Assembly: GCA_963843385.1 (NCBI GenBank)
Contig: CAWJJY010000007.1
Coordinates: forward strand, 566,028-630,027
Direction: 5' to 3'
Length of the DNA: 64,000 bases
Origin: an uncultured Acidobacteriota bacterium
Lineage (GTDB): Bacteria > Acidobacteriota > Vicinamibacteria > Vicinamibacterales > JAKQTR01
A model generated the notes under the pieces. It saw only the letters and a program-made list of their open reading frames with translations. It had not been told where the DNA came from and made no database searches. The position numbers and the translations under genes are program-made. Shown one piece after another: positions 6,529-29,263 of this stretch; within the stretch, counting starts at the first letter, position 1, and every line of letters starts with the position of its first letter.

Positions 6529-8724
6529 ATGGATACGGTCTCCCGCAGACGCTTCCTCAAGATCTCCACAGCCACCGTTGGTGTAGCGGCCGCGGGCGGA
6601 TCACTGGCGCATCTTTCCGGTCAAGCCAGGAACGGCACGAAGTCGGAGGCCGGACTACGGAAGGTGCCGACCTACTGCGACATGTGCTTCTGGAAGTGCG
6701 GGGCGATTGCCTACGTGCAGGACGGGATGCTGTGGAAGGTCGAAGGCAACCCGGAAGATCCGCTGAGCCGGGGCCGCCTGTGCCCTCGAGGGACCGGCAG
6801 CGTCGGCGCCCACACGGACCCCGATCGCCTCAAGGTCCCGCTCATCCGGCGTCGCGGGAGAGGGCAGGACGAGTGGAGCCAGGTCACCTGGGACGAGGCG
6901 CTCACCTACATCGCCGAGCGGATGCAGAGGATCAAGGCGCAATATGGGCCCGAGTCGGTCGCGCTGTTCTCGCACGGCATCGGCGGCACATTTCTCAAAC
7001 ACACGCTCAAGGCGTTTGGCTCTCCGAACATCGCCGCGCCGTCGTTTGCGCAATGCCGGGGCCCAAGGGACGTCGGGTTCAGTCTGACCTTCGGTGAGGA
7101 AATCGGATCGCCCGAGCGCACCGACATTCGCAACAGCCGCTGCCTGGTGCTCATCGGATCGCACCTCGGCGAAAACATGCACAACACGCAGGTGCAGGAA
7201 TTCGCCGACGCGGTCGGCAGCGGCGCGAGCCTCATCGTTGTCGACCCGAGGTTTTCGGTGGCCGCCAGCAAGGCCAAGTTCTACCTGCCGATCCGGCCGG
7301 GCACGGACCTGGCGCTCGTGCTCGCCTGGATGAACGTGCTGGTGGCCGAGCAGCTCTACGACCGGGAGTACGTCGGAAAGTACGGGTTCGGATTCGAGGC
7401 GTTCGCAGCCGAGATCGCGCCGTACACGCCCGAGTGGGCGTATCCCGAGACGGGCATCGAACCCGCCGTCATTCGCGAAACCGCACGGGAGATGGCCAGG
7501 TATCGCCCGGCGACGCTCGTGCACCCGGGTCGCCATGCGACGTGGTACGGCGACGATGCACAGAGAAGCCGCGCGGTGGCGCTGTTGAACGCGTTGCTCG
7601 GGAGTTGGGGACGCAAGGGCGGGTTCTACCAGCCGCGGAGCATGGATGTGCCCGGCTATCCCTACCCGCCGTACCCGGCATCCCGGCAGGGCAAGGTCGA
7701 CAACCCCGGCGGGAAGCATCCATTCGCCTCGGAGTCGATCACCACGGGCATCCGCGAGGCGACCGTGAGCGGCCGGCCCTATCCGGTGAAGGGCTGGATC
7801 ACCTACGCGACCAACCTCATGATGGCGCTGCCCAACGAGGCGGAGACAATCAAGGCCATCCAGGCGCTCGATCTCCTCGTGGTCGTCGACGTGATCCCAA
7901 GCGAAATGGCGGGTTGGGCGGATGTCGTGCTGCCCGAGGCCACCTTCCTGGAGCGGTACGACGAATTGAACGTCGAGCTGTTCCGGGAGCCGTTCGTCGC
8001 GCTGCGCCAGCCGGTTGTCGACGCCCCCGATGATCAGAAACCGAACTGGTGGATCGCGAAGGAACTCGCCACCAAGCTCGGGCTAGAGGCGTACTTCCCG
8101 TGGAAGCACATCGAGGAGTACCTGGGTGCGCGACTGTCGAAGGCGGGGCTGAGCTTCGCCGATCTGAAGCAGAAGGGAATCATCGCCGGCAAGCCCCAGC
8201 CGATCTATTTCGAGGACGGTGTCCCACCCGAGTTCGGCACTCCCTCGGGCAAGATCGAGTTCTACTCGACCAGCCTGCGCGACCGCGGCTTCGATCCGGT
8301 GCCGAAGTATACGAAACACCCGCAACCTCCGCCGGGATCGTTCCGGCTGCTGTTCGGGCGGGCGCCCGTTCACACGTTCGGCCGGACGCAGTCCAATCCG
8401 ATTCTGCACGACATGATGGCGGAGAACGAGGTGTGGGTGAACGCTGATGCCGCGGCCCGCCTGGGCTTCCGGGACGGAGAACGCGTGCGGCTGAAGAACC
8501 AGGACGGCATCGTGAGCAACCTCGTGCGCATGAAGGCGACCAACCGCATCCGTCCGGATTGCGTGTACATGGTGCACGGCTTCGGACATACGGCGGTGCG
8601 ATTGCGGCGGGCGCTGGGCCGGGGCGCGAGCGACGGCCAGCTCGTCACGCGGTACGCCACCGATCCCCTGATGGGCGGCACGGGCATGAACGTGAACTTC
8701 GTCACGCTGGAAACGGAGGCCTGA
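6529..8724 (+). CDS. Tat-exported molybdopterin (bis-MGD) oxidoreductase catalytic subunit, PsrA/PhsA/TtrA-like
   Basis: A twin-arginine signal (SRRRFLKISTATVGVAAAG) is followed by an N-terminal 4Fe-4S motif (CDMCFWKCG...CPRG). The gene sits directly upstream of 4Fe-4S and NrfD subunit genes. A GAGG lies 5 nt before the ATG at 6529. Confidence 0.85.
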   Translation: MDTVSRRRFLKISTATVGVAAAGGSLAHLSGQARNGTKSEAGLRKVPTYCDMCFWKCGAIAYVQDGMLWKVEGNPEDPLSRGRLCPRGTGSVGAHTDPDRLKVPLIRRRGRGQDEWSQVTWDEALTYIAERMQRIKAQYGPESVALFSHGIGGTFLKHTLKAFGSPNIAAPSFAQCRGPRDVGFSLTFGEEIGSPERTDIRNSRCLVLIGSHLGENMHNTQVQEFADAVGSGASLIVVDPRFSVAASKAKFYLPIRPGTDLALVLAWMNVLVAEQLYDREYVGKYGFGFEAFAAEIAPYTPEWAYPETGIEPAVIRETAREMARYRPATLVHPGRHATWYGDDAQRSRAVALLNALLGSWGRKGGFYQPRSMDVPGYPYPPYPASRQGKVDNPGGKHPFASESITTGIREATVSGRPYPVKGWITYATNLMMALPNEAETIKAIQALDLLVVVDVIPSEMAGWADVVLPEATFLERYDELNVELFREPFVALRQPVVDAPDDQKPNWWIAKELATKLGLEAYFPWKHIEEYLGARLSKAGLSFADLKQKGIIAGKPQPIYFEDGVPPEFGTPSGKIEFYSTSLRDRGFDPVPKYTKHPQPPPGSFRLLFGRAPVHTFGRTQSNPILHDMMAENEVWVNADAAARLGFRDGERVRLKNQDGIVSNLVRMKATNRIRPDCVYMVHGFGHTAVRLRRALGRGASDGQLVTRYATDPLMGGTGMNVNFVTLETEA

Positions 8725-12216: not shown

Positions 12217-14994
12217 TCAGTTCCAGATCGGCGAAACGCACCTTGGACTTCGGCGGGACAGGACCGCCTCGAAACCCAGCACCGAGTCTCTCATCACGCG
12301 AGACGAGGCGGCGTGACAGGTCAGGCATGCGCCCACCCGCAGGATGCGACGTTGCTCCTCCGCCGTGAATGGCCGGACATCCTCTCGAGTCGAGACCATG
12401 CCGTCGCGCGTCTGAAGGAACGGAATCCAGGCGTCGGCGGGCAGGCGGTCTTCGGGCAGAGGCGGCGCCGCCGGCTTGAATATCCAGCGCCCGCCGGCCG
12501 GAGTCCGGTCGTACCGTAGTTCTCCGCGACCGTACCCCAGCGCCACCGGGTCGTTGTGGCACGACTCACAGGATCGCGCCTCGCGCCGGGTCGTGTGAGG
12601 CTCGATGCGCGCGTACAGCCTCCGGAACACCGCGTCGGACGGATATCCGGGTTCGCGGCTGCGGTCGATGGTGAGGATCATGCCGGGCACGAATGTCTCG
12701 ATGACGTCTCGAGATGCGCCGGACTTCATCAGGACGCGGCGAACGCCGAGTGTGGGCAGGTCGGAGGAAAACGAACCGGACTTCTCTTCCCAGGCCCCTC
12801 GAACGTCGATCCCCGCGACCCAATCGTAGGCCTCCGCGGCCGCGTCGAATGCGGTATGGCAGGTCGGGCAACGAGGTGCCCACGTCGTATGGCAGCTGCC
12901 ACACGACAGCCTCAGGTGCCCTCCGCCCTCGACGCACACGCGGGCGGCAGGCTTGAGTTCCCTCCGCCCGCCAGTCCTCTTCCGTACCAGGCGCGGTGCG
13001 CCAGTCTCGTCGATGACGAGGTTGACCAGCACCTCGCCGTTCGCCATTCGCACGTAGCGGCTGAATGAGGGCCCCGGCCATCCGCGCAGCGCAAGGATGC
13101 GCCTGGACTCTGGATCGAGACCTGCAGCGGAAACGACGGGCAAGGTGGTTCCCGGTCGCGCGTGGCAGTCCTCGCAGGTCACCCGGACCTGATCGCTCTT
13201 GCGTCCATGCGCGATGCCGTCTCCCATTACTTCGATCGCCGTGTGACAGTCGATGCAGTCGAGCCCGCGCTGCTGGTGCACATCGGGCATGACGCGCTCG
13301 AACACCCGGTCATCCTCGAGCCTGCGGAATCGGGAAGGCGCTACGGTGGAGCGCCCGGCCGCTTCCGTGGGCGGTTCGTTCAACTCGTGCCACCCTTCGA
13401 AGTTGGTCGAGATGCGGCCGGACCGGCTGTGGCAGCCGAAGCACTGTGTATTGCCGATATCGAGGGAGAGCGCCGGATGCACGACCGGGGCGTCGGCGGC
13501 GCCGCGCGCCTTCTGAGCCTGGTACCGGCGCAATGCGTCCAGCGCGGCAGGACTGTAGGCGAGATGACACGCCGTGCACCCTCCGCCCCGCGCGCTCTCG
13601 TCGTTCGGGCCGAGCGCGGTCTTGGCCGTTCCGAGGTGACACGACGCGCACAATTGACGCAGGTGGGTATCGGCGGCCGATTGCCCGATGCTCTGCACGT
13701 GCGATGCACCGCTTCCAGTCGTTCCCCCGTTCTCACCAAAGACGATCCGATCGACGCTCACGATTCCGCTCATCGTGGCCATGACGGAGCCTTGGACGCG
13801 CGGGACGATTGGCTCGTGGCAGACCGACTGGCCGCAGCGGCGAGTTGCGGTGGCCAGGTTGCCCGCGATGACATCCATGCCTGCATGGGCCCGGTCCTTG
13901 TCGATCGTGAACACGTCGCCGCCATGGCATGCCGCACAGCCGACGGCCTCAGGCCGGTGGGCATTACCCAGGCCGGTCACCGCGCGGTGGCAGATCAGGC
14001 ACCCTTCGGGCCGACCCATGACGACCGGAAGCGGCACCGGAAGTGCCGGCGGAGCATTGGAAGTCGCATGCAGCAGCCATCCCGCGCGCAGGTTGCCAGC
14101 CCCGGTCGGCCAACCCGGCTGCCACGCCCAGTTTTCGCCGCGCAGGAACCCTCCGACGCCGCACATTCCGAGATACCCGACGGTCAGCACCAGCAGGAGC
14201 GCTTTCGTCCACGCCGCACGTGGACCGGGGAAAACTCGGACGGCGTAGAGCGCGCCGGCGATAGCCGCACCCGCTGCAACGACGATCAGCGGCCGTGTCG
14301 CCCAGTGCAGCATCTCCTGGAGACCGAGGAAGTACCAGGGGCCCTTGACGATGGGATCGAGCCCGTCGTGCAATCCCGGCGACAGGAACAGCGAGAGCCC
14401 GCTTGTGAGGAGGGTGATCGCGACAAACGCCTCCCGACGAGGCCACACGCGGCGCGAATGCTCGATGATGAACAGCCACGCGACAATGGTCGCGGTGGCC
14501 GCGTGCTGCACGTAGATCAGGTCGAGGTGCTCGCCTGCGCCAAACACCATCGTGGCGGCAAGCGGCCCGATGATCGGCACCTGTGAGGTGGCGCCGGCCA
14601 GTATCCGAAGCGCCTGTCGGCCCTCCGGATCGCCGCGCAGCATGAACCCGGAGAGCATGATGAAGACGAGCACCGGCAGCGTCAGCGTAAGCCGCAACCA
14701 CATGCCCTTGCCGACGCGATGCTCGGTTCGTGCGCGCAGGTGATCCCAGAGGTGGAGCAACGTCAGCACCAGGCAAAGCTGGCCCGCCCAGTAGTGCGCG
14801 TTGCGAAAAAACGCCGCGGCCGGGTTCGCAAGCATGACCGCGGCGATGGATCCGTAACTGTCCTTCACGTCGTAGGGGACGGCCACGAGCACGCCAGTTA
14901 CGGCCGCGATGACGAAGGCGGCGACGGCGAAGTCGCCGAACGAGCCCCAACGGAAGGTGAGGATGGCGGAGGGCTCGCGGGCGTCAGGTCGCAC
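12217..14994 (-). CDS. cytochrome b (b6 + subunit-IV-like, about 7 TM helices) fused to a large periplasmic multihaem cytochrome c domain (11 CxxCH plus 1 CxxxxCH)
   Basis: The N-terminal part carries FRNAHYWAGQLCLVLTLLHLW (H-x13-H), HAATATIVAWLFIIEH (H-x14-H) and a PEWY-equivalent KGPWYFLGLQEML. Downstream haem motifs are CLICH, CAACH, CGQSVCH, CASCH, CTACH, CFGCH, CIDCH, CEDCH, CGSCH, CPTCH, CESCH and CLTCH. The ORF-track start at 15192 overlaps the Rieske gene. I place the start at the GTG at 14994, which overlaps the Rieske stop by 11 nt. Confidence 0.85.
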   Translation of the reverse strand: MRPDAREPSAILTFRWGSFGDFAVAAFVIAAVTGVLVAVPYDVKDSYGSIAAVMLANPAAAFFRNAHYWAGQLCLVLTLLHLWDHLRARTEHRVGKGMWLRLTLTLPVLVFIMLSGFMLRGDPEGRQALRILAGATSQVPIIGPLAATMVFGAGEHLDLIYVQHAATATIVAWLFIIEHSRRVWPRREAFVAITLLTSGLSLFLSPGLHDGLDPIVKGPWYFLGLQEMLHWATRPLIVVAAGAAIAGALYAVRVFPGPRAAWTKALLLVLTVGYLGMCGVGGFLRGENWAWQPGWPTGAGNLRAGWLLHATSNAPPALPVPLPVVMGRPEGCLICHRAVTGLGNAHRPEAVGCAACHGGDVFTIDKDRAHAGMDVIAGNLATATRRCGQSVCHEPIVPRVQGSVMATMSGIVSVDRIVFGENGGTTGSGASHVQSIGQSAADTHLRQLCASCHLGTAKTALGPNDESARGGGCTACHLAYSPAALDALRRYQAQKARGAADAPVVHPALSLDIGNTQCFGCHSRSGRISTNFEGWHELNEPPTEAAGRSTVAPSRFRRLEDDRVFERVMPDVHQQRGLDCIDCHTAIEVMGDGIAHGRKSDQVRVTCEDCHARPGTTLPVVSAAGLDPESRRILALRGWPGPSFSRYVRMANGEVLVNLVIDETGAPRLVRKRTGGRRELKPAARVCVEGGGHLRLSCGSCHTTWAPRCPTCHTAFDAAAEAYDWVAGIDVRGAWEEKSGSFSSDLPTLGVRRVLMKSGASRDVIETFVPGMILTIDRSREPGYPSDAVFRRLYARIEPHTTRREARSCESCHNDPVALGYGRGELRYDRTPAGGRWIFKPAAPPLPEDRLPADAWIPFLQTRDGMVSTREDVRPFTAEEQRRILRVGACLTCHAASSRVMRDSVLGFEAVLSRRSPRCVSPIWN

Positions 14995-15436
14995 GGGCGG
15001 TCCACCCACCGGAGGCCGGGTCCGGATCGATCCGGAGCGGCACGAGCGGCCGTCTCGCGGGACCTGCCGATACCGTGCCGTCCGCACGGAAGTGCGATCC
15101 GTGGCACGGACAGACGGCCTCGTTCTCGATGATGCGGTCGATGCGACATCCCAGGTGCGTGCAGGACGCGGAGAATGCACGGAGGGTGCCACCGGAGTCT
15201 CGATGGACGATGGCCGAGTCGACCACCGACAGGCCGCCGGGCACGTCGGGCGGGATGCTGATCGAGGCTGGGACGCGCGTGGCCTCTACACCTCGCACCA
15301 TTGCATAGAGTGAGCCCAGAAACGGAAGGCTCAACGCGGTCGCGAGCAAGCGTTTCAGCACCGTGCGGCGTGTGCGGTGGTCGCTGCGCGGAGAACCGAC
15401 GGTGGGTGCGTGGCGCTGGTTCTCTTCGACCATCAT
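14984..15436 (-). CDS. Tat-exported Rieske [2Fe-2S] protein
   Basis: A twin-arginine motif (HRTRRTVLKRLLATALSL) and the Rieske boxes CTHLGC and CPCHGSHF are present. The gene lies immediately upstream of the cytochrome b fusion gene. Confidence 0.9.
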   Translation of the reverse strand: MMVEENQRHAPTVGSPRSDHRTRRTVLKRLLATALSLPFLGSLYAMVRGVEATRVPASISIPPDVPGGLSVVDSAIVHRDSGGTLRAFSASCTHLGCRIDRIIENEAVCPCHGSHFRADGTVSAGPARRPLVPLRIDPDPASGGWTARAT

Positions 15437-15651: not shown

Positions 15652-16164
15652 GTGACCCAATACGAGACAATGACGCGGGAAGAACTGCTCGACGCCTTGA
15701 AAGCTTTCGCCAAGAACTGGCTCGCCCACGATGGATGCTGGTTCCTGGCGGCGGAAGAGCGCCTGGGTCTCGAGACGGCCATCGAGCTCGACGCTGCCGC
15801 CTGGAAGCGGTTTGCCGTGGCGGAGGCGCGACGGATCATCGATCTGTTCGGTGTCGGCCAAGGCGGGGGACTGCAGGCGCTGCGGCGCGCGCTGTCCCTG
15901 CGGATGTACGCCTTGCTCAACGACCAGCGCCTCGAATGGTCGGACGGTACCCAGACGTTACGCCTCGTGATGGACGGGTGCCGCGTGCAAGAGACGAGGC
16001 GCCGCAAAGGCCTCCCGGAGTTTCCCTGCCGGCCGGTGGGAGACGTGGAATTTGCCTCGTTCGCCACCACGATCGATTCCCGGATCGTGACGCGCTGCGT
16101 CCACTGCCCCCCGGACGCCAATGCGGGCGGCGCGTGCACGTGGGAATTCACGCTCGGACTCTAG
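15652..16164 (+). CDS. conserved-looking hypothetical protein (Cys-rich C-terminus); possibly DUF6125/ATC-hydrolase-like
   Basis: Codon usage looks coding. The sequence includes WLAHDGCWFL...CRVQE...CRPVG...CVHCPPD...C. The family assignment is from memory only. Confidence 0.45.
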   Translation: MTQYETMTREELLDALKAFAKNWLAHDGCWFLAAEERLGLETAIELDAAAWKRFAVAEARRIIDLFGVGQGGGLQALRRALSLRMYALLNDQRLEWSDGTQTLRLVMDGCRVQETRRRKGLPEFPCRPVGDVEFASFATTIDSRIVTRCVHCPPDANAGGACTWEFTLGL

Positions 16165-16326
16165 TGTCCCGAGTCAGAAGTTCGCCGACATATTCCGGGC
16201 GGGGCATCCCGCCTCGCTCAGATTGCTTCTCCCTCGCATATTCCCGATAGTCTCGGTCGTCGCGCCTTGCGATCCGGGCGCCGCGCTCCGGACTATTTGT
16301 CACCGAACTTCTGACTCGGGACACTA
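16162..16326. mobile_element. MITE-like non-autonomous element: perfect 21-bp terminal inverted repeats, TA target-site duplication, CTAG target (IS630/Tc1-mariner style)
   Basis: The left TIR GTGTCCCGAGTCAGAAGTTCG (16164-16184) is the exact reverse complement of the right TIR at 16304-16324. A TA flanks each end (16162-3 and 16325-6). Removing the element plus one TA leaves ...GGACTCTAGACGAC..., which contains a CTAG. The internal 119 bp has no credible ORF. Confidence 0.6.
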
Positions 16327-17721
16327 GACGACTCGGCGGGGAAGCATCGCGGGGTGTGACGGGGAGGTCCGTCGCGCCCACACCAGCATCAGCGTCAGGC
16401 CGACGATGGTCAGGCTCGTCGCGAGCCCGGCCCAGAGCCCCTGGACTCCCCACCCCCACCAGAAGCAGGCCGCGTAGCCGAGCGGCAGGCCGATCGCCCA
16501 ATGGCCGGCGAGATTGGCCACCATCGGGATCCTCGTCTCTCCGATGCCGCGCAGGATGCCGGTGGAAATCGTCTGCGTGCCGTCGAAGATCAGGCAGACG
16601 CCGGCGATCGTCAACAGCGACGGGCCGATCGCCAGCACGGCTGCATCGCGTGAAAAGGCGGACACCAGCGTCCGGCCGGCTGTGAGAAAGACCATCGCGG
16701 CCATTCCTGTCGAGGCCGCGCCCAGCGCGAGCGCCGTCCAGCCTGCCCGGCGGATTCCCCCGGGGTCGAGTCGTCCGACGGCGTGGCCGACGCGAACGGC
16801 TCCAGCAGCATTGAGGCCGAGCGGAACCATGAACACGACCGACCACAGGTTGAGCGCGATCTGATGTGCCGCCAGGGCCGCCGGGGCGATTCGGCTCACC
16901 AGCGCCGTGGCCACCGCGAAGACGCCGACCTCGAAGGTCAGCTGAAATGACGCGGGAATGCCCAATCCGAGCATCCTCCGAATTCCTGCCCAATCCACCT
17001 GCCTCGGCGTGCCGGACAGGCCGGTGTCCCGTCGCCGTTCCCGCATCCTGATGGCGAGCCCGAGCACCACCACGAGGTAGACACGCGAGAGCACGGTCGC
17101 CCACCCGGTTCCGATGCCTCCGAGCGTCGGAAGGCCGAAGCGGCCGTGGACCAGGCTCCACCCTACGGCGGCATTCACGAGGTTGGCGGACAGCAACGCA
17201 ATGGTGATCGGGCGGACCACGTTCATCGCCTGGAGGTACCGGCGGAACACCGTGTAGACGAGCAGCGGGGGCACGCTCAGCGAGATCGTGCGCAGGTAGG
17301 GCACGACCAGCGCCGCGACGTCCGGCGCCAGGTTCCATGACGCCATCGACCTGGACACCGCGAAGAGCATCGCCATCAGCGGCAGGCTGGCCAGCAGGCT
17401 GAGGTAGATGCCCTGATGGAGCCAGTGGTGGCACCGATCGAGGCGCCCGGCGCCGAAGGCCTGTGCCACCAGGGTGTCGAGCCCGAGCAGCAGGCCCATG
17501 CCGAAGATGGCGAACGCCAGGAACACGATGCTGCCGAGGCCGACCGCGCCGATGGCGGCCGGACCCAGGGGACCCACGATCAGCGTGTCGACCAGACCCA
17601 TCATGCTCCAGCCGATTTCGGCGAGCACGACCGGGACGGCCAGCGTGACCATGGGGCGCAGTTCCGCTCTCAGCGCGGCGTACACCGTTCCATCTTGTCG
17701 TACGGTCTCTCGTGGTGTCAC
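16324..17721 (-). CDS. MATE-family multidrug/toxin efflux transporter
   Basis: The C-terminal 466 codons of ORF 16324..18936 are hydrophobic. They carry a typical MATE N-terminus (LRAELRPMVTLAVPVVLAEIGWSMMGLVDTLIVG) and about 12 TM helices. A GTG at 17721 is chosen as start. Upstream of this point the ORF is antisense to the UbiA gene. Confidence 0.8.
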   Translation of the reverse strand: MTPRETVRQDGTVYAALRAELRPMVTLAVPVVLAEIGWSMMGLVDTLIVGPLGPAAIGAVGLGSIVFLAFAIFGMGLLLGLDTLVAQAFGAGRLDRCHHWLHQGIYLSLLASLPLMAMLFAVSRSMASWNLAPDVAALVVPYLRTISLSVPPLLVYTVFRRYLQAMNVVRPITIALLSANLVNAAVGWSLVHGRFGLPTLGGIGTGWATVLSRVYLVVVLGLAIRMRERRRDTGLSGTPRQVDWAGIRRMLGLGIPASFQLTFEVGVFAVATALVSRIAPAALAAHQIALNLWSVVFMVPLGLNAAGAVRVGHAVGRLDPGGIRRAGWTALALGAASTGMAAMVFLTAGRTLVSAFSRDAAVLAIGPSLLTIAGVCLIFDGTQTISTGILRGIGETRIPMVANLAGHWAIGLPLGYAACFWWGWGVQGLWAGLATSLTIVGLTLMLVWARRTSPSHPAMLPRRVV

Positions 17722-25517: not shown

Positions 25518-26023
25518 CTACCAGCCACAGCGCCAGACCTTGACGATTCCCGCCCGCCGAAGCGCGATCGGGCCTCAGTTCATCCGCCGCAGACGCACCA
25601 CCGTGTGATAGCATGTCGGCCTTCATCCGATCCGACCGGCTGCCACCATTGATCACGCCAATAGGGCTGACGCCGAATGGGCCCCTGCGGCATGAGCGCA
25701 TTGGCGCGCCGCTCCCCTCGGAGTTGACAGCCTTCGAACCGATCGCGTTTCCCGAATAGCAGCACGACCGCTTTGGCAGGAGCGGAGACGGACTCGAGCG
25801 CCGGCTGGTTTGAGTCGCGGTGTGCGTTCATGTCGAGTTCTGTTCGACGAAGGCCGCCGTCAGGTTTCGGCATCGGGTCGATGGCTCGGATGCAGGTAAC
25901 TGCCGTGGACCCGTCCTGTTGATCGTGATGAATGACCCCAGGGAGGTGAACGGAAGCTCGGCGCAAAGGGGGCGGGCCTTTCGGGCCATGGTGGCGCCAG
26001 CCGGACTGTGCGGATCGCACTGG

Positions 26024-29000
26024 ATGTCGCGGCGCAGTACGCCGCGGGAGGAGCGCAAGGTGAAACTCCAGAATGGTGTTGCCGCCGTCGTGATCGTCGC
26101 AGTGTGCGTCATCCCGGTCGCTGCGCAGTTCCTGCCTGGAACCACCACGCGGGTGAGCAGGGCGAACGACGCCATCCAGTCGAATGGGCCTTCATCCAGG
26201 CCCGCGATCAGCGCGGACGGGCGGTACGTCGCATTCGACTCCTTGGCCAGCACCCTGGTGCCGGGCGACACCAACGGCGCCTATGACATCTTCGTCCACG
26301 ACCGCGACACCAGCATGACCACTCGGGTCAGTGTGGCAACCGGCGGCACGCAGGGGAATTCATCCTCCTTCGCCCCCGCGATCAGCGCGGACGGGCGGTA
26401 CGTCGCGTTCGGCTCCGGCGCCAGCAACCTGGCAGCGGGCGACACGAACCTCTGGGGCGATGTGTTCGTGCACGATCGCGTCACAGGCATCACCACGCGG
26501 GTCAGCGTGGCGAGCGACGGCACCCAGGGGGATTCAGACTCCACCTCTCCCGCGATCAGCGCGGACGGGCGATTTGTCGCGTTCTACTCCTACGCCGACA
26601 ACTTGGTGGCGGGCGACACCAACGGGGCGTATGACGTCTTCGTCCATGATCGCGACACAGGCGTCACGACGCGCGTCAGTGTAGCGTCCAACGGAACCCA
26701 GGGAAACGGCCAGTCCCTCAACTCCGCGATCAGCGCGGACGGACGGTACGTCACGTTTGAGTCCAGGGCGAGCAACCTCGTGACGGGCGACACCAATGGC
26801 TGGGCGGATGTGTTCGTCCACGATCGCGCGACGGGCGCTACGACACGGGTGAGTGCGGGGAGCAACGGCACCGAGTGGGACTCACCCTCCAGCCTTCCCG
26901 CGATCAGCGCGGACGGGCGGTACGTCGCGTTCGGATCCTCGGCCACCAACCTGGTGCCGGGCGATACGAACAACTCGGACGATGTCTTCGTTCACGACCG
27001 CGCGACCGGCGCCACGACGCGGGTGAGTGTGGCATTCGACGGCACGGAAGGGAACGGCCATTCCTTCCCGTCGGCGATCAGCGCGGACGGGCGGAATGTC
27101 GTGTTCGCGTCTGACTCCAACAACCTGGTGGCGGGCGACACCAACGGCGTCCGTGACGTCTTTGTCCACGATCGCGAGACTGGCGCGACGTTGCGGGTGA
27201 GCGTGGCAACCGGCGGCGTCCAGGGGAATGACGGTTCCGAGTACGTCGCCGCAATCAGCGCGGACGGGCGGAGCATCGCGTTCGTATCCTCAGCCAGCAA
27301 CCTGGTGTGGAGCGACAGCAATGGTTACATGGACGTCTTTGTCCACGTCGTGGGGGCGCCGCCGACATTAGCGGGCATCGAGCCGGCGGAGGGGCCGACT
27401 CCAGGTGGGACCGGCGTCACGCTGACCGGTACGGACTTCGTGACGGGTGCCACTGTGGCCTTTGGCGGTGCGCCAGCAGCGGTGGTGACCGTGCTCGACG
27501 CCAACACGATCACAGCCACCGCGCCGGCTCACGCGGCGGGTCCCGTGGATGTGGTGGTGACCAATCCCGACACGCAACCGGGGAGGCTGGCAGGCGGGTT
27601 CACCTACATGGCGTGCACGTTCACTATTGACCCGAGCTCCACCAATCCGGGCGCCGCTGGCGGAGCCGGCGGCGTTGCGGTGACGGCGAACAGATCGGAC
27701 TGCAGCTGGGCTGCGGTCAGCAACGGTGCATGGATCGCCGTCAGCCCGGGCAGCGCGGTCGGAACCGGCAGTGGGACGGTGAACTACTCCATTGCGGCGA
27801 ACCCGCTGCATGCGAGCCGGCTGGGAACGATGACCGTCGCGGGGCAGACCTTCACGGTCACCCAGGCGGGCGTCGTCTGCGCGTTCACGATCGATCCGAC
27901 GGCGGTGAGTCTTGGCGCGTCTGGCGGGGCCGGCAGCGTGGCGCTGACAACCAACGCCACGGACTGCGGCTGGACGGCGGTCAGTCAAGTGTCGTGGATC
28001 CAGGTTACCGGAGGCGGAAGCGGGACGGGCAATGGGACAGTGCAGTATCAGGTCCCCGCGAATCTGACGCCCGGGGCGCGCCAGGGCGGTGTCCTGATTG
28101 GGGGGCGAAGCTTCAGCGTGTCTCAGGCGAATCCAAGTACGGTGCCCGGGCCACCCGGCGGACTGATTGGATCGTCAACCGGGTCATCACTCACGTTGTC
28201 GTGGACGGCGCCGAGCACCGGGGGCCTGCCCACGGCCTTCATCATCGAGGCGGGATCATCTCCTGGCCTGTTGAATCTCGCGAACTTTTCGACGGGCAAC
28301 TCGTTCACCTTCTTCTCTGCGAACGGCGTCCCCAACGGTCTCTACTTCGTGCGGGTTCGCGCGACAAACGGATTCGGCACGAGCGGGCCCTCAAACGAAG
28401 TGCAGGTCCGCGTGGGCCCACCGCCGCCTGGCGCCCCGACTGGATTGACGGCAGGTGCTGCCGGGTCGACCGTCACGCTTTCGTGGAATGCTCCAACGGG
28501 AGGCGCCGCGCCGACGGCCTACATAATCGAGGCCGGGTCCGCTGCCGGCCTGGCGGACCTGGCCAACTTCTCGACGGGCAACACGCTGACCGCCTTTTCG
28601 GCAGCCGGCGTAGCCAACGGGACCTACCACGTTCGGGTGCGCGCCACCAACGTGGTAGGACCAGGCGAACCGTCGAACGAGGTCATTCTTCAGGTTGGGC
28701 CTCCGCCGCCAGGTCCGCCGAGCGGTTTCAGCGCGTCGGCCATCGGGTGGACGGTGAGCATGTCCTGGAACGCGCCGACGACGGGCGGTCCGCCGAACTC
28801 GTACACGATTGAAGCGGGAACGGGACCAGGCTTGTCGAATCTGGCCAATCTCGCGACCAACAACGTGCTCACCACGTTTTCGACGAGTGGGGTGGCGGAT
28901 GGCGCGTATTACCTGCGGGTGCGCGCGAGCAACGCGTACGGCTCGAGCGCCCCATCGAATGAAGCGTTACTCTACGTCGGCTGCCCGGGACCTCCCGGAA

Positions 29001-29263
29001 CGCCGGCCAATCTCCACGTGACGGCCAATAGTGGAGGCACCCTCGCTTTCGCTTGGAACGCGGCAAGCGGATCGCCAAGCTCATACATCTTCCACGCCGG
29101 ATCGACCTCAGGTGAAAACGACCTCGCGAGCATCGACGTTGGCAATACGCTGTCGTTCAACGCGTCGGGAGTGCCAAGCGGGACCTACTTCATTCACGTC
29201 CACGGCGAGAACGCGTGTGGCGTAGGCGGCGCGTCGAACGTCGCAACGGTGATCGTGCCCTAG
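26024..29263 (+). CDS. giant secreted repeat protein: 7x PD40/TolB-like beta-propeller blades, an IPT/TIG domain, 2 Ig-like (BACON-type) domains and 4 Fn3-like repeats
   Basis: A signal peptide (KLQNGVAAVVIVAVCVIPVAAQ) is present. There are seven 58-aa units ISADGR.V.F.S.A.NLV.GDTNG..DVFVHDR.TG.TTRVS. An IPT-like segment reads IEPAEGPTPGGTGVTLTGTDF. Two C..C.W......WI...G.G.V.Y.V..N....R.G...V.Q units follow, then four units of about 94 aa of the form ...L..SW.AP..G..P..Y.IEAG...G...LA.....N........V..G.Y.VRVRA.N..G...PSNE. An alternative start is the GTG at 26060, preceded by GGGAGGAG. Confidence 0.8.
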   Translation: MSRRSTPREERKVKLQNGVAAVVIVAVCVIPVAAQFLPGTTTRVSRANDAIQSNGPSSRPAISADGRYVAFDSLASTLVPGDTNGAYDIFVHDRDTSMTTRVSVATGGTQGNSSSFAPAISADGRYVAFGSGASNLAAGDTNLWGDVFVHDRVTGITTRVSVASDGTQGDSDSTSPAISADGRFVAFYSYADNLVAGDTNGAYDVFVHDRDTGVTTRVSVASNGTQGNGQSLNSAISADGRYVTFESRASNLVTGDTNGWADVFVHDRATGATTRVSAGSNGTEWDSPSSLPAISADGRYVAFGSSATNLVPGDTNNSDDVFVHDRATGATTRVSVAFDGTEGNGHSFPSAISADGRNVVFASDSNNLVAGDTNGVRDVFVHDRETGATLRVSVATGGVQGNDGSEYVAAISADGRSIAFVSSASNLVWSDSNGYMDVFVHVVGAPPTLAGIEPAEGPTPGGTGVTLTGTDFVTGATVAFGGAPAAVVTVLDANTITATAPAHAAGPVDVVVTNPDTQPGRLAGGFTYMACTFTIDPSSTNPGAAGGAGGVAVTANRSDCSWAAVSNGAWIAVSPGSAVGTGSGTVNYSIAANPLHASRLGTMTVAGQTFTVTQAGVVCAFTIDPTAVSLGASGGAGSVALTTNATDCGWTAVSQVSWIQVTGGGSGTGNGTVQYQVPANLTPGARQGGVLIGGRSFSVSQANPSTVPGPPGGLIGSSTGSSLTLSWTAPSTGGLPTAFIIEAGSSPGLLNLANFSTGNSFTFFSANGVPNGLYFVRVRATNGFGTSGPSNEVQVRVGPPPPGAPTGLTAGAAGSTVTLSWNAPTGGAAPTAYIIEAGSAAGLADLANFSTGNTLTAFSAAGVANGTYHVRVRATNVVGPGEPSNEVILQVGPPPPGPPSGFSASAIGWTVSMSWNAPTTGGPPNSYTIEAGTGPGLSNLANLATNNVLTTFSTSGVADGAYYLRVRASNAYGSSAPSNEALLYVGCPGPPGTPANLHVTANSGGTLAFAWNAASGSPSSYIFHAGSTSGENDLASIDVGNTLSFNASGVPSGTYFIHVHGENACGVGGASNVATVIVP

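Follow-up and report, generated by a model that had tools for sequence, protein, structure and literature searches.

A miniature element, probably of the IS630 family, at the stop codons of two convergent genes in an uncultured Acidobacteriota bacterium

We analysed a stretch of 64,000 nucleotides from an uncultured Acidobacteriota bacterium (GenBank assembly GCA_963843385.1, contig CAWJJY010000007.1, positions 566,028 to 630,027 of the forward strand), hereafter called the window, in which a 161-bp element lies between a gene for a DUF6125 protein and a convergent gene for a MatE protein. With a probability that we put at about 0.9, this element is a MITE (miniature inverted-repeat transposable element) of the IS630 family that entered the TA of a CTAG serving as the overlapping stop of the two genes, both stops being rebuilt by the insertion. 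The locus is in this respect a further member of a well-known kind, a textbook-type MITE. Its features are listed here, where TIR stands for terminal inverted repeat.

16164-16324, 161 bp: element read as a non-autonomous IS630-family MITE, flanked by TA within CTAG on both sides
16164-16184, plus strand: left TIR, GTGTCCCGAGTCAGAAGTTCG, identical to the left end of a full-length IS630 element (L088, 4-1205)
16304-16324, minus strand: right TIR, the perfect complement of the left one, CGAACTTCTGACTCGGGACAC as read at the right end
16162-16163: left TA target-site duplication, inside the CTAG at 16161-16164, read directly and from the flank logo of the family
16325-16326: right TA target-site duplication, inside the CTAG at 16324-16327, read directly and from the same logo
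15652-16164, plus strand: DUF6125 gene (PF19620, 208.7 bits, residues 7-168 of 170)
16324-17652, minus strand: MatE (MATE efflux) gene (PF01554, 186.4 bits), start taken from the 442-aa gene call of the 99% relative
GGACTCTAGACGAC: predicted empty site after removal of the element and one TA, with the DUF6125 and MatE stops overlapping on CTAG
CACGCTCGGACTCTAGACGACTCGGCGG: sequence spanning the reconstructed empty site

The junctions, over 16155-16335, read CTCGGACTC-TA-GTGTCCCGAGTCAGAAGTTCG...CGAACTTCTGACTCGGGACAC-TA-GACGACTCGG, with GGACTC immediately before the left TA and GACGAC immediately after the right one. The two TIRs are complementary at 21/21 positions and, with the flanks included, a repeat search gave an inverted repeat of 34 nt at 91% (16160-16193 / 16295-16328). 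The inverted repeat of the element is the longest close inverted repeat of the whole window. When up to three mismatches were allowed, the TIR 21-mer was found at two sites of the window, both of them the element ends (0.01 expected from shuffles). The element has no coding capacity, the open reading frames (ORFs) that cross the 161 bp being spurious, and its single strand folds at -97.5 kcal/mol (z = -8.5 vs shuffles). A preliminary description of this DNA, made from the window alone, had reported a 161-bp element with perfect 21-bp TIRs and TA flanks, and a CTAG that reappears when the element is excised with one TA; the anatomy was confirmed at these coordinates, and the CTAG was reconstructed as GGACTCTAGACGAC.

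The exact TIR was scanned against 185,579 species-representative GTDB genomes, in which ~0.27 matches are expected by chance, and it was found in at least 117 genome stretches (L001-L117). These belong to at least ~40 assemblies, whose record titles name at least eight phyla. The taxa listed comprise Alpha- and Betaproteobacteria, a Reinekea, Polyangiaceae, Binatia, Dehalococcoidia, Gemmatimonadota and Planctomycetota, together with Acidobacteriota (Vicinamibacterales, Terriglobia, Thermoanaerobaculia and Solibacteraceae) and Actinomycetota (Solirubrobacterales, Acidimicrobiia, Gaiellales and Miltoncostaeaceae). Pairing of forward and reverse ends yielded at least 47 elements at unrelated sites; among these listed pairs, 25 measure 157-162 bp, five 188 bp and five 1.16-1.81 kb, the others ranging from 61 to 241 bp. 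Among the matches listed, Solirubrobacterales MFD01872, Binatia SMAG_U14495 and Burkholderiaceae AOB1 carry multiple copies, and the full-length copies closest to the window element are L024 (83%), L100 (81%), L025 (78%) and L076 (76%). The multiple copies of the exact TIR at unrelated sites in many genomes support the MITE call of the preliminary description, and the presence of one TIR across at least eight phyla implies that the cognate IS630 element or its MITEs have spread widely by horizontal transfer.

The outer flanks of the listed copies are mutually unrelated, yet almost all of them read cTA-element-TAg. In the flank logo of the 150 ends listed, position -3 is C in 136, position -2 is T in 128 and position -1 is A in 137; TA flanks 115 of the 150 ends, CTA precedes 109 of them, and the element begins with G. 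IS630 was reportedly found by Tenzen and Ohtsubo in 1991 (as cited in PMC2170065) to prefer TA within 5'-CTAG-3'. Several of the matches listed repeat TA only, namely L025 (TTA..TAA), L018 (TTA..TAG), L085 (ATA..TAG) and also L109. Because these copies with differing outer bases repeat nothing beyond TA, the duplication is of 2 bp and not 4, a point that the window copy by itself does not decide, since duplications of TA and of CTAG predict the same empty site. The CTAG target with a TA duplication, first proposed from the window, thus agrees with the family as a whole, and cut-and-paste insertion at TA, with duplication of that TA, is known for the IS630 family (PMC2170065).

Moreover, full-length partners that carry the same TIR were found in other genomes, in keeping with the earlier expectation of an IS630-family master element. 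One of them (L088, 4-1205), in a Xanthobacteraceae genome, is 1202 bp long, with the same left TIR, a right end with 4 mismatches and CTA..TAG flanks. Its one intact ORF encodes a protein of 370 aa that scores 265.7 bits (cut-off 100) with the NCBIfam model NF033545 'IS630 family transposase' and contains the Pfam DDE_3 domain and helix-turn-helix (HTH) domains. A protein 78% identical to this transposase is encoded in L093 (Falsiroseomonas sp. HW251, an isolate), where the left TIR is matched at 21/21, as it is in L005, a frameshifted full-length copy. A further copy, on a plasmid of Bradyrhizobium sp. CB82 (75.7% DNA identity), is annotated 'IS630 family transposase' and is flanked by CTA..TAG; its TIR, GTGTCCCGAGTCACAAGTTCG, is 20/21 identical to that of the window. 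The full-length partners were not matched to any named ISfinder entry.

Both genes next to the element keep a stop codon. The TAG of the DUF6125 gene (16162-16164) consists of the left TA and the first G of the element, and the TAG of the MatE gene (16326-16324, minus strand) consists of the right TA and the complement of the last C of the element. The DUF6125 protein ends at the same residue as most of its homologues (...FTLG[LVE]*), and the conserved core of MatE ends in ...LVWARRT[SA]PS, followed by a tail of variable length. Compared with homologous sequences, neither protein is truncated, and both have kept their natural C-termini. The earlier statement that each gene retains an intact TAG after the insertion is therefore upheld, as both stops are read directly.

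To compare orthologous loci, relatives were gathered by a protein search with DUF6125, at 99%, 86% and ~79% identity. The genes of the 99% relative (L118, ENA ERZ25039502) are arranged as in the window, and an identical element sits at the corresponding position. In the 86% relative (L119) and the two at 79% (L120 and L121), the order DUF6125-MatE-UbiA is kept and the element is absent. The two genes overlap tail to tail in these three loci, by 38 bp in L119 (4497-4534), 17 bp in L120 (4497-4513) and 17 bp in L121 (2328-2344), so that an overlap of the convergent ends is the norm for the DUF6125-MatE pair. Judged from these loci, the insertion appears to predate the divergence of the window from L118 and to have happened after L119 had split off. 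Exact look-ups of the DUF6125 and MatE proteins of the window led to no contigs other than those in which the insertion is present or the assembly breaks within it. Two short-read contigs of ERR12037368 encode exactly the DUF6125 or the MatE protein of the window and end 14 and 25 nt past the stops; as they end inside the TIRs, this is a typical assembly break at a repeat, and it lends indirect support to multiple copies in the source genome. In short-read genomes, many of the listed TIR matches likewise lie close to a contig end, at a distance of ~100-180 nt.

We also asked why an insertion should be found at a shared stop. Since the first base of the element is G and the last one C, CTAG, and with it TAG on each strand, is rebuilt at both ends, and this outcome is general in the family. 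Coding-like ORFs (at least 80 codons, with the highest G+C content at third codon positions) that stop at TA plus G adjoin 36 of the 110 evaluable ends listed, the control frames giving 2 and 6. Gene stops at both ends recur in the set chosen by TIR (L090 and L034) and in the set chosen by the conserved core described below (L012, L137, L140 and L215, or 4/60 among the matches listed). In the window, CTAG is four-fold depleted (13 vs 55.9 +/- 7.4 expected from dinucleotide-preserving shuffles), and 6 of the 11 CTAG sites that were not made by the element are stop codons of coding-like ORFs. Similarly, 74 of the 256 unoccupied CTAGs in the loci listed (~29%) are stop codons, 7 of them on both strands. 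Given that CTAG is depleted and that free CTAGs are often stop codons, it is to be expected that one third of the family ends lie at stops. In these loci, occupied ends are 2.6-fold enriched for stops compared to free CTAG sides (36/110 vs 81/512, P = 1.3e-4), which is consistent with a loss of gene-disrupting insertions. The shared-stop geometry is thus the expected and, we infer, near-neutral outcome of target preference plus selection.

These observations can be combined into the following course of events, which draws on the known mechanism of the family. An IS630-family DDE transposase that recognised the 21-bp ends would have mobilised the element in trans; the element would have been excised and inserted at the TA within a CTAG, with duplication of that TA. 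The target CTAG would have contained the stops of both the DUF6125 gene and the convergent MatE gene, with a 2-bp overlap. The G...C ends would then have recreated CTAG twice, giving a top-strand TAG at the left end and a bottom-strand TAG at the right end. As both frames kept their stops and full-length products, the insertion was presumably close to neutral and hence survived.

Inside the element, we found an asymmetric core that is conserved far beyond the window, with the following parts.

16207-16279, plus strand: conserved core (covariance model R1, 46.1 bits, E = 2.4e-9)
16220-16231: core box 1, AGATTGCTTCTC, a degenerate form of GCGTTGCTCCTC (4 changes of 12)
16232-16256: apical hairpin region of the core, between the boxes
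16257-16267: core box 2, TCGTCGCGCCT

Short paired arms flank the boxes and the hairpin. When the listed copies chosen by TIR were clustered by their interiors, the window element grouped with copies of 158-162 bp from Vicinamibacterales, other Acidobacteriota, Gemmatimonadota/Longimicrobiales and Planctomycetota. The conserved blocks in the alignment of this cluster are GGCGTTGCTCCTC and TCGTCGCGCCTTGCC, and the arms toward the TIRs are variable yet complementary. Over 11 TIR-chosen copies from three phyla, identity was 97.8% in the TIR, 82-84% in the boxes, 49-59% in the arms and 46% in the apical part. The preliminary description had taken the perfect TIRs of the window copy as a possible sign of recent insertion, a suggestion that is not sustained: with TIR columns ~98% identical even between copies of different phyla, and arms at only about 50%, perfect TIRs do not date the insertion.

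Metagenomes were then scanned with GCGTTGCTCCTC-N(20-32)-TCGTCGCGCCT (23 specified bases, ~0.4 chance matches per 10^12 bases), and the exact core was found in at least 120 loci (L123-L242). Only ~8 of these listed loci have the TIR of the window; the remaining ones are inverted-repeat elements of ~160-170 bp with at least a dozen other TIR types, whose ends include GCAGCCCGTGGTGAAAGTC, GTGTCCCGTCACCGTGG, GTGGCCTGTCC, GTGCCGCCGGTCAG, GGAGCCGTCAAC and GAGTCTGTGAAC among the matches listed. Within the same matches, core elements are nearly all flanked by TA, often in CTAG; a longer type of ~290 bp has the ends GAAACGGCAGTTGACC, a type of ~330 bp has the ends GAACCCATCTCATAAATAGG and contains another core-like copy in inverted orientation, and AT-rich elements retain a G+C-rich core. 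It should be noted that apparent conservation is inflated in both sets, as exact boxes were required in the metagenome set and similar interiors were what defined the genome cluster. This bias does not explain identical boxes in company with divergent arms and ends. The boxes are identical in at least 120 elements whose arms and ends are different at most positions, and this argues either for purifying selection on the boxes or for a very rapid turnover of the ends.

The hairpin between the boxes varies in a compensatory manner (AATAC/GTATT, CATAC/GTATG, GGAATAG/CTATTCC, GCGGGC/GCCCGC). In a gap-free alignment of 57 distinct copies, from which model R1 was built, 89.0% of cells were paired vs 76.8% in shuffles, and the covariation score reached 0.307 vs 0.099 in shuffles and at most 0.078 when the partners were slid; compensatory changes were seen in the core arms and in both apical helices. 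Boxes 1 and 2, as read from the sequences, are imperfect direct repeats (CGTYGCKCCT, 8/12 positions), and a protein site on double-stranded DNA would be consistent with such repeats too. Several familiar features were compared with the core by eye, namely a promoter, a sigma-54 site, an integration host factor (IHF) site, a small ORF, the rrn/lambda boxA and a tRNA T-arm. None of them seemed to fit, either because the spacing or consensus was wrong or because the feature is missing in the variants with a G+C-rich apical hairpin.

A search of the literature by core sequence returned only unrelated primer or aptamer matches, and no full-length insertion sequence (IS) with the two boxes split by a transposase gene was found. 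In the plasmid collection, the common 170-bp core type had no match, and the 290-bp type matched plasmid DNA of Caballeronia (no feature) and Polaromonas ('hypothetical protein'). Neither the TIR nor the core was found in the IMG/VR viral contigs. One contig with a core element (L196) also bears, elsewhere on the contig, matches to the Acido-Lenti-1 RNA (38 bits) and to domain V/VI of a group II intron (47.9 bits), at spans 2757-2802 and 7117-7186.

Several observations weigh against the reading of the locus as an IS630-family MITE in a shared stop. The window holds a single copy of the element, and no IS630 transposase was found in its 64 kb, where the best tblastn match covered 46 aa at 30% identity (E = 0.001); the preliminary description had correctly reported the lack of a transposase there. 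The full-length partners among the matches listed are all alphaproteobacterial, with none among the listed Acidobacteriota loci, and the phylum labels are titles of metagenome-assembled genomes, in which mis-binned contigs are possible. In local alignments with L088, L005 and L122, the MITE interiors gave z < 2 vs shuffles. About 12 nt adjoining the TIR look alike, by eye only, in the MITE and the full-length IS. Given that its interior is unlike the full-length IS, the MITE is not a simple deletion derivative. As regards the empty site, the relatives that lack the element are too diverged to display the CTAG, L120 reading GTGTAGGG there, and the exact empty site CGCTCGGACTCTAGACGACTCGGC, a 24-mer across the reconstruction, was absent from the JGI metagenomes; for these reasons we infer the ancestral 2-bp overlap and do not see it. 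The overlapping stop of the preliminary description thus holds in the reconstruction, where both genes end on one CTAG, while the ancestral state remains a probable one. Likewise, the comparison with orthologous loci showed the absence of the element in L119, L120 and L121, but not the exact empty CTAG site.

Among the other explanations, a conserved, non-mobile hairpin that ends transcription of the two convergent genes as an intrinsic terminator in both directions, which the preliminary description had also proposed, might be suggested by the very stable long hairpin that lies exactly between them, and in pneumococci an enrichment between convergent genes is known for repeats that include the IS630-related RUP (PMC3049150). 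However, neither strand has a T/U run after the main stem, the sequence there being GACGACTCGG on the plus strand and GAGTCCGAGCG on the minus strand (reverse complement of 16150-16160), and a terminator scan returned only an inner 6-bp hairpin (16273-16292) with the weak tail CTATTTGTCA. Since, in addition, the same sequence is dispersed at unrelated sites with TA duplications, and the relatives at 79-86% have overlapping genes and no element, we hold a dedicated terminator to be very improbable; the element may still have a side-effect on transcripts. An IS5-type MITE that duplicates 4 bp, for which the CTAG at both ends of the window copy and the identical empty site would serve equally well, has a precedent in MITEPsy1 of Pseudomonas syringae (listed as 'IS5?'), which duplicates CTAG or YTAA (PMC3189936). 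The flanks that repeat TA only (L025, L018, L085 and L109) and the IS630-family transposase encoded by full-length elements with these ends speak against it, and it seems to us even more improbable than the terminator. A chance palindrome or an assembly artefact would account for a single copy in the window with nothing else, and is contradicted by the TIR pair, which shuffles would hardly produce, by the identical element in the independent assembly L118 and by hundreds of related copies elsewhere; it is scarcely credible, and the least probable of the three.

A further proposal, that the core of the mobile MITE is a functional cargo or cis module, is compatible with an IS630-family MITE in the shared stop, and the window element may then do more than sit neutrally. 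Such a module could be a structured RNA or a single-stranded-DNA hairpin with conserved internal loops; alternatively, it could be a site for a conserved host protein, helping so short an element to form a synapse or influencing transcripts nearby. In its favour are the sharing of one core by so many loci and TIR types, boxes better conserved than arms or apical part, covariation well above that of shuffles, the score of the window copy with the core model, and an interior without significant similarity to full-length IS. On the other side, no Rfam 15 family matched the window copy or 15 core-bearing loci at gathering score; in a permissive scan, look-alike long hairpins stayed far below threshold (plant miRNA, i.e. 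microRNA, precursors and VA RNA for L139; several unrelated families with E > 0.2 for L172). The orientation of the core relative to adjoining genes is unbiased in the loci listed (21/72 vs 16/71, P = 0.45), and the modelled strand shows no preference for G-U over A-C pairs (8 vs 19), so that there is no strand-specific RNA signature. Same-TIR subfamilies without a match to the model, in Solirubrobacterales (162 bp), Burkholderiaceae (188 bp) and Binatia (212 bp), have multiplied, and the core is thus not needed for transposition. Moreover, box 1 of the window has changes at 4/12 positions, and the way the sets were selected inflates conservation. Taken together, a putative cis-acting or cargo module with some function is possible, if doubtful; the form that it would most likely take is a cis-acting module maintained by selection on the element or on the host. 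More speculative, and in our view rather unlikely, is the joint reading in which the elements form a very large superfamily of IS630-type MITEs across phyla, united not by their ends but by an asymmetric core of ~50-70 nt (GCGTTGCTCCTC, covarying hairpin, TCGTCGCGCCT(TGCC)) that would be a functional nucleic-acid module and ride with exchanged or re-tuned TIRs, the re-tuned TIRs matching whichever IS630 transposase is present; this would be a 'cargo-carrying' MITE lineage of a kind that we did not find described for bacteria.

Regarding known systems, the element resembles IS630 of Shigella sonnei and other members of the IS630 family (e.g., ISY100) in its TA duplication and short TIRs (PMC2170065). 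It also shares the CTAG preference, which belongs to IS630 itself and not to every member of the family, and the full-length partners found here have a DDE transposase with N-terminal HTH domains and a DNA identity of ~75% with the annotated IS630-family copies of Bradyrhizobium. Unlike IS630, the window element has 161 bp, no gene and an interior unrelated to that of the full-length IS. The pneumococcal RUP, a MITE attributed to IS630-Spn1, is likewise non-coding (107 bp), with IS630-like TIRs, TA targets and a hairpin that pairs the TIRs (PMC2229807), and its over-representation between convergent genes was read by the authors as tolerance of a parasite (PMC3049150). It differs in sequence, host phylum and size, and occurs in a few streptococci only, whereas the TIR of the window spans at least eight phyla. 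For RUP, we know of no described core common to elements with other TIRs.

The Correia elements of Neisseria (NEMIS) are MITEs of ~100-155 bp with a TA duplication, whose transcripts form long hairpins, and the 155-bp form has a functional interior motif, an IHF site (PMC2229807). They are confined to one genus, whereas the core described here lacks, by eye, an IHF-like consensus and occurs with many TIRs. To our knowledge, no IS630 partner of the Correia elements has been found. Plant Stowaway MITEs, which are mobilised by Tc1/mariner transposases, have a TA duplication, short TIRs that match the transposase type and interiors unlike the autonomous element. Apart from being eukaryotic, they share TIRs and differ inside, whereas here the same core is also found with different TIRs. 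MITEPsy1, probably related to IS5, inserts at CTAG as well (PMC3189936), but has a 4-bp duplication and ISPsy2-like ends (IS5 family) instead of TA and IS630 transposases.

For the locus itself, the finding matters little; the placement of the element can be ascribed to the CTAG preference of IS630, to the rarity of CTAG and its use in stops in a G+C-rich genome, and to G...C ends that make such insertions harmless by rebuilding CTAG. For annotation, it illustrates that a hairpin adjoining two stop codons need not be a terminator and that short-read assemblies break at the element. The wider family shows one 21-bp TIR that is identical across Alphaproteobacteria, Actinomycetota and Acidobacteriota. 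Should the core prove functional, it would show that a module with a function can be carried from phylum to phylum by bacterial MITEs, and it would offer a defined sequence of 50-70 nt for study.

Some other copies with the TIR have an unusual structure. Other mobile DNA is nested inside two of them: L099 (663-2471) holds a 473-aa ORF that, by eye, we take to be an IS1182/IS5-like transposase, and L074 (2392-3632) holds remnants that presumably are IS110-like, again by eye. A 241-bp copy in L055 (5448-5688) has an internal 79-bp duplication, and the minimal copies in L043 (5026-5086) and L060 (1067-1143), of 61 and 77 bp, are hardly more than two TIRs. In L034 (6020-7176), two TIRs 1157 bp apart enclose unrelated ORFs and no transposase, and genes stop at both outer TAGs; this arrangement may be a composite or two solo ends.

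Elsewhere in the window, just upstream of the DUF6125 gene, a 991-aa ORF (12217-15436, minus strand) combines cytochrome b with several multihaem cytochrome c domains and is overlapped by a Rieske-protein gene (14984-15436), the pair looking like an unusual bc-type complex. Finally, an ORF of 1147 aa (25820-29263, plus strand) contains 6.8 tandem copies of a 174-nt (58-aa) unit at 26143-27321, and its TAG stop also sits in a CTAG (29260-29263).

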